A stretch of DNA of 64,000 nt. Source: Phycisphaerae bacterium. GTDB taxonomy: Bacteria; Planctomycetota; Phycisphaerae; Phycisphaerales; UBA5793. The notes below the pieces were generated by a model, which worked only from the letters and a program-made list of their open reading frames with translations, was not told the origin of the DNA and did not search any database. Shown here piece after piece: positions 8,942 through 9,562 of the stretch. How positions within the stretch are numbered: position 1 is the first letter of the stretch; every line of letters begins with the position of its first letter. The DNA lies in the NCBI GenBank assembly GCA_039794345.1, contig JBDIVQ010000002.1:6558-70557 (forward strand), written 5' to 3'. A program made the position numbers and the translations under genes.

Positions 8942-9562
8942 CGCAGCGACCTGGGCGTCTGGACGCGACGCGATCCGCTCGGGTACGTGGATGGAATGGG
9001 GTTGTATGAATATGTGATGTCGAAACCGCTGAACACCTCGGATCCTTCTGGTACCGATTCCAGACAAGATCTACGCAGAGATTGTCTGACACTCTGCTTC
9101 GAGATTACTTTGGGAAACCTCGGCCCCGAAATGGATGCATGCATGGAGAGATGCATGAATGGCAAATTCTGCGAGATCCAGTGCTCGCTCGAAAGCGATC
9201 CCGGCTCAAAGGAATACAAGGACTGCCTCAAGAGATGTAAAGGCAAGGGGCTTCGTTTCAAATTCTACGGAAACCACTGCGGACCAGGCCATGGGGATCG
9301 CCAAAGGTCCGGCGGCGGCCCCCCAAAGGACGGAACGGATGCGTGCTGTGCCGAACACGACCGTTGCTATCAGCTCGGAGATTTCGGTGGATACAAGCCA
9401 TTCGACAAGTCATGCGGGCAGTCGATTTGTGACTCGGCCATGTGCGCTTGCCTGAAGAAGCGAATGAAAGAGGGCGGCCTAGACTTCAGCGAGCTCATCC
9501 ACAATTTGATCATGCAAATCGTGTTCTGCAACTTTAACGATAACTGTCACAGCCAGAGCTGA
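8942..9562 (+). CDS. detached RHS C-terminal toxin tip, phospholipase-A2-like, Cys-rich
   Basis: Same reading frame as the core: 8987-3452 is divisible by 3. It reads RSDLGVWTRRDPLGYVDGMGLYEYV (RHS DPxG boundary), then FYGNHCGPGHG...DACCAEHDRCY at 9266..9370. This matches the secreted-PLA2 Ca-loop (YGxxCGxG) and active site (CCxxHDxCY). The longest initiator-bearing ORF is 8987..9562 (GTG). GC is visibly lower than in the core. Confidence 0.6.
   Translation, partial: RSDLGVWTRRDPLGYVDGMGLYEYVMSKPLNTSDPSGTDSRQDLRRDCLTLCFEITLGNLGPEMDACMERCMNGKFCEIQCSLESDPGSKEYKDCLKRCKGKGLRFKFYGNHCGPGHGDRQRSGGGPPKDGTDACCAEHDRCYQLGDFGGYKPFDKSCGQSICDSAMCACLKKRMKEGGLDFSELIHNLIMQIVFCNFNDNCHSQS

Follow-up and report, generated by a model that had tools for sequence, protein, structure and literature searches.

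A predicted secreted-type phospholipase A2 cassette at the 3' end of a probably inactivated RHS polymorphic-toxin gene in a Phycisphaerales genome

The DNA analysed here is a stretch of 64,000 nucleotides (the window) from a Phycisphaerae bacterium of the Phycisphaerales lineage UBA5793 (Planctomycetota; assembly GCA_039794345.1, contig JBDIVQ010000002.1, positions 6,558 to 70,557 of the forward strand). Its subject is the 3' end of an RHS open reading frame (ORF), the cysteine-rich tip domain encoded behind it, and the gene that follows. An original prediction, made from the letters and translations, had taken the tip for the C-terminus of the RHS protein and compared it with secreted phospholipase A2 (PLA2) of the eukaryotic or plant type. 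All positions below are those of the window, and residues of the tip are numbered from T1 at 9053, the first residue past the second DPxG motif. The features of the locus are as follows.

3452..8941, plus strand: RHS/YD-repeat core ORF of 1829 amino acids (aa), uninterrupted and ending at a premature TAA (from the ORF list).
8939..8941, plus strand: TAA nonsense codon in the RHS frame, where an aromatic residue is conserved, between HVRHRV and RSDLGVW (CGTGTC-TAA-CGCAGC, compared with relatives).
8942..9052, plus strand: what remains of the RHS-associated core domain, including both DPxG motifs of the aspartyl protease, RRDPLG…TSDPSG (TIGR03696 and phmmer).
9020, no strand: approximate core/tip recombination junction (DNA identity to the RHS modules of L004, described below).
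9053..9241, plus strand: N-terminal segment of the tip, predicted to form four helices, with one CxxxC pair in each (Cys positions and AlphaFold).
9242..9559, plus strand: predicted catalytic domain of the secreted-PLA2 superfamily, tip residues 64-169 (Pfam, PDB phmmer, family profile, AlphaFold and Foldseek).
9266..9295, plus strand: putative Ca2+-binding loop YGNHCGPGHG (Y72-G81), aligned with YGCYCGWGG of group V and WCGHG of bee-venom PLA2.
9338..9370, plus strand: putative catalytic helix DACCAEHDRCY (D96, C98, C99, H102, D103, C105, Y106), aligned with DACCRTHDMC of 1poc and DACCMVHDHC of rice 2wg8.
9428..9451, plus strand: third-helix segment CDSAMCAC (C126, D127, C131, C133) with the Asp99 equivalent, aligned with the CDCDDKFYDC helix of bee-venom PLA2.
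9671..10786, plus strand: ORF371, downstream gene on the same strand and candidate immunity gene (position, GC content at third codon positions and homologues).

The ORF at 3452..8941 matches the RHS repeat (PF05593, E 1e-5) and the YD repeat (TIGR01643, E 3e-9), and a phmmer search of the RHS core against the PDB gave zero matches. Past the TAA the RHS frame runs on as RSDLGVWTRRDPLGYVDGMGLYEYVMSKPLNTSDPSG, the sequence conserved where RHS/TcC proteins have their C-terminal end, and the segment 3' of the stop matched the C-termini of YenC2, TccC3 and TccC2 in phmmer. The Rhs_assc_core model (TIGR03696) spans the stop with an E of 3.9e-16 (model positions 1-75 of 76), only if Tyr is put in place of the TAA. 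The stop falls within this domain and upstream of both DPxG motifs, and shell, core and tip are not one ORF. Having overlooked the TAA between the RHS ORF and the tip ORF, the original prediction described an RHS C-terminal tip; this part of it does not hold, as the PLA2 domain is now uncoupled from the RHS protein by a stop at a conserved Tyr/Phe position.

Single-protein scans of genome and metagenome contigs returned no tip orthologue and RHS-motif matches only, so the TAA was compared with paralogous modules, namely two tandem orphan RHS C-terminal modules (9113..10510 and 11003..12487) in a Phycisphaerales metagenome-assembled genome (JAPKGW010000025.1, here L004). Where the window has GTC-TAA-CGC, these modules have GTC-TAC-CGC (Tyr) and GTC-TTC-CGC (Phe), and RHS-PLA2 relatives that are more distant (P0002 and P0040) also have Tyr at this codon. 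The simplest reading is that the TAA arose by a single C-to-A nonsense mutation (TAC to TAA). The identical TAA was found in three Logan assemblies (runs SRR28812185-7), so it did not come from a slip in assembling a single record. Recoding of TAA as a sense codon was rejected because TAA is the ordinary terminator of other well-supported genes in the window, such as the capsid and DrmA genes.

The TAC-to-TAA change truncates the RHS protein within its core domain, 5' of the cleavage motifs, and leaves a tip ORF without carrier or export signal. Gene callers annotate what is left as a protein of 188 aa from ATG 8996, which starts with MGLYEY within the RHS core motif; no export signal was found on this free-standing ORF. 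Most likely the RHS system is a recently inactivated pseudogene, and the inactivation looks recent because both halves are still open. A search of the window for further RHS fragments or orphan modules found none.

The two motifs pointed out in the original prediction were recovered exactly. In the frame common to the RHS ORF (3452..) and the ORF at 8987..9562, according to the ORF list and its translation, FYGNHCGPGHG is followed after 14 residues by DACCAEHDRCY (9263/9266..9370), with the F at 9263-9265 and YGNHCGPGHG starting at 9266. The abundance of cysteines was likewise borne out (18 Cys in 169 residues). On its own sequence the tip is only suggestive of PLA2: single-sequence searches matched PLA2 families and structures only, the best PDB match in phmmer being group V PLA2 9qdw (E 9e-4), PF08398 scored 15.7-16.7 bits (E 0.009-0.018, cut-off 23.9), and a word-indexed protein search returned the tip itself alone.

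The assignment, as far as sequence comparison can carry it, becomes firm in the context of the family. When 1.84e9 representative proteins were searched exhaustively with HMMER, 90 of them matched at E<=1e-3; every one aligned through the loop-to-helix region, and many sit on RHS proteins. In an alignment of 33 sequences, C76, G77, D96, C99, H102 and D103 are invariant, and G73, N74, C105, C126, D127 and F158 are at least 90% conserved. The profile built from these sequences matched PLA2 chains only in the PDB, including bee-venom 1poc (38.8 bits, E 7.7e-9), rice 2wg8 (35.3 bits, E 1e-7) and a bovine pancreatic-type PLA2 mutant, 1kvx (E 2.5e-7), and the aligned blocks take in three elements, CGxG, DACCxxHDxC and the C-D helix. 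Among the members of the trimmed alignment, PF00068 was matched by 29 of 29 (best E 4.9e-12), PF05826 by 26, PF08398 by 21 and PLA2G12 by 10; the prokaryotic family PF09056 was matched by 0 of 29 at E<=10, nor did the tip match it at E<=1. A profile search of a collection of 5.8 billion proteins gave 180 proteins at E<=1e-5, mostly annotated already as PF00068 or PF08398, with a few named, for example, 'phospholipase [Streptococcus halichoeri]' or 'RHS repeat-associated protein'. These searches support placing the tip domain in the secreted-PLA2 superfamily, among its eukaryote-type sequence families. The resemblance to PLA2 that had been claimed therefore stands at the level of the family, with Ca2+-binding and catalytic residues intact, and not at the level of the single sequence, which stays below the Pfam gathering score.

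Attachment to RHS proteins was seen for P0002, P0011, P0017, P0024 (a full RHS protein of 1431 aa with an obvious Sec signal), P0025, P0037, P0040 and P0106. An RHS-type motif lies directly upstream in about 18 of the 183 family members that have a Ca2+ loop, which indicates that PLA2 is a recurrent, though uncharacterised, RHS tip. One RHS-associated subclade (P0004, P0040, P0080 and P0090) has a Cys-containing insertion of 25-35 residues between the Ca2+ loop and the catalytic helix, giving a loop-to-helix offset of 48-60 compared with the usual 20-28.

AlphaFold models of the tip have a pLDDT (predicted local distance difference test) of 76-79 overall and of about 90-97 in the catalytic core. 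In Foldseek searches of the PDB with these models ranks 1-25 were all secreted PLA2 (probability up to 0.96), and the matches are weak (template-modelling score about 0.4, root-mean-square deviation 3.5-4.6 Å over 88-100 columns, E >0.1). A Pfam search and a structure prediction had been proposed as a check of the resemblance, and their outcome is divided: the tip itself remains under the Pfam cut-off and its Foldseek E-values are not significant alone, but its relatives pass and the top folds are all PLA2. We take the bovine Ca2+ ligand positions Y28, G30, G32 and D49 to correspond to tip H75, G77, G79 and D103, the bovine catalytic network H48, D99 and Y52 to H102, D127 and Y106, and the bovine disulfides C29-C45, C44-C105 and C51-C98 to the expected pairs C76-C99, C98-C133 and C105-C126. 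Judged by this alignment, every residue required for catalysis is present in the tip.

The spacing of the two motifs had been described as closest to plant group XI enzymes, which proved only approximately right. Counted from the loop Cys to the first of the two Cys in CC, the offset is 22 in the tip, 21 in bee-venom group III (1poc), 19 in rice group XI (2wg8) and 15 in group V, so that group III is nearer, and the rice loop SGCPGERPC has two extra Cys where the window loop GDRQRSGGGPPKDG has none. Bee-venom group III also outscores the plant enzyme as nearest solved relative (38.8 vs 35.3 bits). The tip domain is a mosaic, nearest to group III by score and by spacing alike. The second tip of L004 (…CGSGWNE…TPCCDEHDACY) gave weak matches to PLA2G12 (E 3.6e-4) and to the prokaryotic PF09056 (E 0.026), which suggests that one RHS lineage carries two PLA2 branches.

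A PLA2 toxin domain has been catalogued before. Tox-PLA2 was described in silico as a tip of RHS/ALF polymorphic toxins, with planctomycetes in its range, and was defined on the Streptomyces 1kp4 type with the motif CxxHxxxYxN, that is, Pfam PF09056; no immunity family was listed for it (Zhang, de Souza, Anantharaman, Iyer and Aravind 2012, PMC3482391). The window tip shares with it the placement of a predicted PLA2-fold toxin domain at the C-terminal end of an RHS polymorphic toxin. Unlike Tox-PLA2, the tip and its 29 relatives match PF00068/PF05826/PF08398 and never PF09056, the tip has C99-x-x-H102-x-x-x-Y106-x-L without the Asn of CxxHxxxYxN, and its YGNxCGxG Ca2+ loop and CC-HD-C signature are of the eukaryotic type. 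Literature searches found no experimentally characterised RHS-borne PLA2, and the lipocone paper cites PLA2 in its references only. The earlier remark that few such tips have been characterised is thus borne out, as none was found, for a kind of tip that had been predicted as Tox-PLA2 in 2012.

Among solved enzymes, bee-venom group III PLA2 (1poc, 8pih) is the best profile match and shares CGxG, DACCxxHDxC, the C-D helix and nearly the loop length (21 vs 22); the leading YG is missing from it, and it has beta elements at its C-terminus. The window protein differs in its fourth helix (…IMQIVFCNF) and has a pre-domain with four CX3C pairs and an RHS junction. The rice group XI enzymes (2wg7/2wg8/2wg9), second-best in the solved matches, share YGKYCG…LDACCxxHDxC and a long spacer, but the spacer is 19 and not 22, the two Cys of the rice loop are absent from the tip, and rice has an Asn (MCNENL) at the position of the window's Cys-Asp pair with D127. 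In bacteria, SlaA is a streptococcal prophage-encoded PLA2 that has been studied experimentally (PMC5491884). Stand-alone bacterial PF00068/PF08398 proteins (P0147, P0191, P0178 and P0103) share the YGNYCGPGH…HDxCY core with the tip; they and SlaA differ in being Sec-secreted and host-directed rather than RHS cargo, and in several of them only one Cys precedes HD. We infer that P0147 and P0191 are SlaA-family proteins, going by their names and host. The sequence comparisons place the tip in the eukaryote-type PLA2 branch that is known in bacteria as stand-alone secreted enzymes, streptococcal phospholipases included. The Tle phospholipases of the T6SS (type VI secretion system) are toxins used between bacteria; working from the periplasm, they destroy membrane phospholipids, and exported periplasmic Tli immunity proteins neutralise them. 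The window cassette would resemble them in general terms, as membrane-phospholipid-destroying interbacterial toxins with exported immunity. Tle1-4 belong to the GxSxG lipases with an alpha/beta-hydrolase fold and Tle5 to the phospholipases D; none of them is known to have a secreted-PLA2 fold or to be RHS-encapsulated.

Base composition changes along the locus. GC content, with GC content at third codon positions (GC3) in brackets, is 0.628 (0.862) in the RHS core, 0.531 (0.657) in the tip and 0.582 (0.642) in ORF371, and beyond it GC is 0.66-0.67, which agrees with the earlier statement that the tip is lower in GC than the core. Measured in 60-nt segments, the DNA up to about 9019 mostly agrees with the L004 modules at an identity of about 0.8-0.97, apart from isolated segments that score lower; from 9020 on the identity is about 0.4-0.5. 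This break comes right after …GMGLYEYVMS, the canonical RHS junction. The GC3 shift together with the collapse of identity at about 9020 indicates that the tip was swapped in, as had been suspected for a toxin cassette, and the swap probably took in the downstream ORF371 too.

The tip, as numbered here, begins with a 63-residue pre-domain with the CxxxC pairs C11/15, C30/34, C40/44 and C58/62, for which AlphaFold gives helices at 4-19, 25-35, 38-47 and 53-62 (pLDDT 50-85). It is missing from the RHS-attached relatives, in which the Ca2+ loop starts 3-40 residues past DPxG. A comparable layout of four CX3C pairs and PLA2 was seen in one stand-alone relative (P0028), and a similar CX3C helix-hairpin unit occurs in five tandem copies in a secreted protein (P0038).

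ORF371 starts 108 nt past the stop of the tip, and the Met at 9671 is backed as its start by the alignment of homologues. Its GC3 of 0.642 is tip-like and unlike that of its neighbours. No Pfam, NCBIfam or PDB-profile match was found for it. In the collection of 5.8 billion proteins only four other homologue clusters were found, with 68-78% identity and on contigs of Phycisphaerales type, one homologue being on a contig labelled Phycisphaerales UBA5793. In two other Phycisphaerales (L007, 10001..11083; L010, 10001..11116) the homologues form single low-GC3 islets (0.66-0.69 vs 0.76-0.91 in neighbours) in unrelated housekeeping surroundings, each preceded by a divergent gene of 174-184 aa. The N-terminus of ORF371 is short, hydrophobic and conserved, and it may or may not be an export signal. 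The genes 3' of other RHS-PLA2 tips encode exported or membrane proteins that are unrelated to each other: a lipoprotein-like protein follows P0002, a tetratricopeptide-repeat protein with a signal peptide follows P0024, and multi-transmembrane zinc-ribbon proteins are found in L004. The two L004 modules have different tips, each followed by a multi-transmembrane protein ending in a zinc ribbon (10338..11021 and 12521..12952). Exported or membrane proteins behind other tips fit an immunity that acts outside the cytoplasm. We tentatively regard ORF371 as a candidate immunity gene, possibly with orphan copies elsewhere, and hold this to be somewhat short of an even chance.

The locus is probably the 3' end of an RHS polymorphic-toxin gene with a secreted-type PLA2 cassette, inactivated in this genome by the TAA. 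The cassette would encode a Ca2+-dependent, disulfide-rich PLA2 of the secreted type behind the CX3C pre-domain. By analogy with solved Tc/Rhs structures, the intact form would have enclosed the unfolded tip in the RHS shell, and the two DPxG aspartates would have freed it by autoproteolysis. The 18 Cys and the Ca2+ requirement suggest a periplasmic or extracellular site of action, so that delivery would have been to an oxidising, Ca2+-rich compartment, where the tip would fold and its disulfides would form; the envelope or periplasm of a Gram-negative competitor is the likeliest such compartment. There Ca2+ would be held by the G77/G79 loop and D103, and H102, D127 and Y106 would hydrolyse the sn-2 acyl bond of membrane phospholipids, as expected from PLA2 enzymology, releasing lysolipids and fatty acid and thereby damaging the membrane. 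The co-acquired ORF371 would be the best candidate for a protective immunity protein.

Several observations weigh against this account. The tip alone scores 17.5-19 bits against PF00068 (E 0.002-0.006), below the cut-off of 32.1. Its closest relative, P0002, is 51% identical and no nearer orthologue was found, and with the next-best relative so distant selection on the tip is not measurable. The three assemblies that share the TAA may come from one population, and the stop may not be fixed more widely. At the N-terminus of the RHS protein no signal peptide, PAAR or other recognised domain was found, and no secretion-system or delivery module (PAAR/VgrG-linked or TcB-like) was found among the larger window ORFs that were scanned. 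In other genomes the homologues of ORF371 stand alone, with no RHS or PLA2 remnant upstream, and ORF371 has no similarity to the genes downstream of other PLA2 tips.

Other explanations can be set against the same evidence. If the locus were still functional, low-level readthrough of the TAA would give some full-length RHS-PLA2, or the tip ORF would be expressed separately from GTG 8987 or ATG 8996 for another use. The frames are intact on both sides of the TAA (1829 codons upstream, 206 downstream) with no more lesions, the DPxG motifs and all catalytic residues are kept, and the 188-aa protein is annotated. However, no bacterial terminator is more efficient than UAA, TAA is a normal stop in the window, the free-standing ORF has no signal peptide and begins within the RHS core motif at MGLYEY, an 18-Cys, Ca2+-dependent enzyme should not fold in the cytoplasm, and the truncated RHS lacks the C-terminal plug and the cleavage motifs; we therefore consider continued function quite unlikely. 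A more far-reaching proposal along these lines, which we put forward as speculation and hold to be improbable, is that the cassette is still used, with RHS-PLA2 made at low dose through readthrough or the tip made alone, that the four CX3C pairs are an oxidative-folding latch, that ORF371 founds a new immunity family against eukaryote-type PLA2 toxins, and that the RHS-borne YGNxCGPG…CCxxHDxC clade is the prokaryotic sister group to the PLA2s of bee venom, plants and parvoviruses.

An intact cassette might instead have had eukaryotes as its target, for example algae or protists that live alongside Phycisphaerales, or have been a freely secreted lipase, with ORF371 an unrelated neighbour. The tip is nearest to eukaryote-type and virus-type PLA2 families, the related stand-alone bacterial proteins have signal peptides (the streptococcal 'phospholipase' P0147 and P0191, and P0178), ORF371 homologues are never RHS-linked elsewhere, no T6SS genes were found among the window ORFs scanned, and the streptococcal SlaA works on host cells (PMC5491884). 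Yet tip and ORF371 are adjacent on one strand with the same atypical GC3, and behind each other RHS-PLA2 tip comes a small protein, exported or of the membrane, which is the arrangement of toxin-immunity pairs. The eukaryotic cytosol, moreover, is reducing and low in Ca2+ and unsuited to this type of enzyme, and on balance this reading as a whole seems unlikely. We think it very unlikely that the PLA2 fold serves without lipase activity, as a membrane- or receptor-binding toxin like the catalytically inactive PLA2 homologues of snake venom: the closest relative P0002 has HDHLW instead of HDxCY, showing that the family tolerates changes near the active site, and the extra domain of four CX3C pairs has no known role, but the window tip keeps G77, G79, H102, D103, Y106 and D127 for catalysis and Ca2+ binding. 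Chance resemblance of the two motifs on an unrelated Cys-rich peptide, for which the single-sequence Pfam score below the curated cut-off and the Foldseek E could be cited, is effectively refuted by the match of the family profile to solved PLA2 with three separate conserved elements, by PF00068 in 29 of 29 relatives and by top structural matches that are all PLA2.

Beyond this locus, a prophage lies directly downstream of the RHS genes (11479..~46000), which also encodes a trypsin-like protease fused to eight Sel1 repeats, and a class 1 DISARM defence system follows on the minus strand (47155..63924). A tRNA gene stands on the upstream side; as an island attachment site it gained no support, as the tRNA region has no repeat of at least 14 nt elsewhere in the window and no boundary was defined. 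These features are as follows.

2960..3034: tRNA-Asn(GTT) gene, 417 nt upstream of the RHS start.
11479..13565: prophage DUF2924 and large serine recombinase.
17659..19923: prophage PrimPol/AAA_25.
21868..23385: prophage ParB-DNA methylase fusion.
23382..27707 and 30437..32275 (given jointly): prophage ORF of 1441 aa with no Pfam match, and the protease-Sel1 gene.
27848..30232: prophage terminase gpA.
33723..35231: prophage lambda-type portal.
35185..37194: prophage capsid gene.
47155..48945, minus strand: DISARM DrmB.
48945..52460, minus strand: DISARM DrmA.
52630..54147, minus strand: dCTP-deaminase-type defence protein between DrmMI and DrmA (PADLOC dCTPase, E 7e-164).
54217..56127, minus strand: LmuB-like ATPase between DrmMI and DrmA.
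56105..60556, minus strand: DISARM DrmMI.
60556..63924, minus strand: DISARM DrmD.

As found in this genome, the locus records a single nonsense change that probably retires a polymorphic toxin while its cassette and the neighbouring gene persist. If repaired and active, the protein would be the first characterised RHS-delivered PLA2 of the secreted type, lipid-targeting RHS tips having been predicted since 2012 and never tested, and it would offer a handle on where a disulfide-rich, Ca2+-dependent cargo folds once it has left the RHS shell. Some 180 bacterial relatives, about one in ten of them RHS-attached, also bear on the evolutionary history of the eukaryotic and viral secreted PLA2 families.

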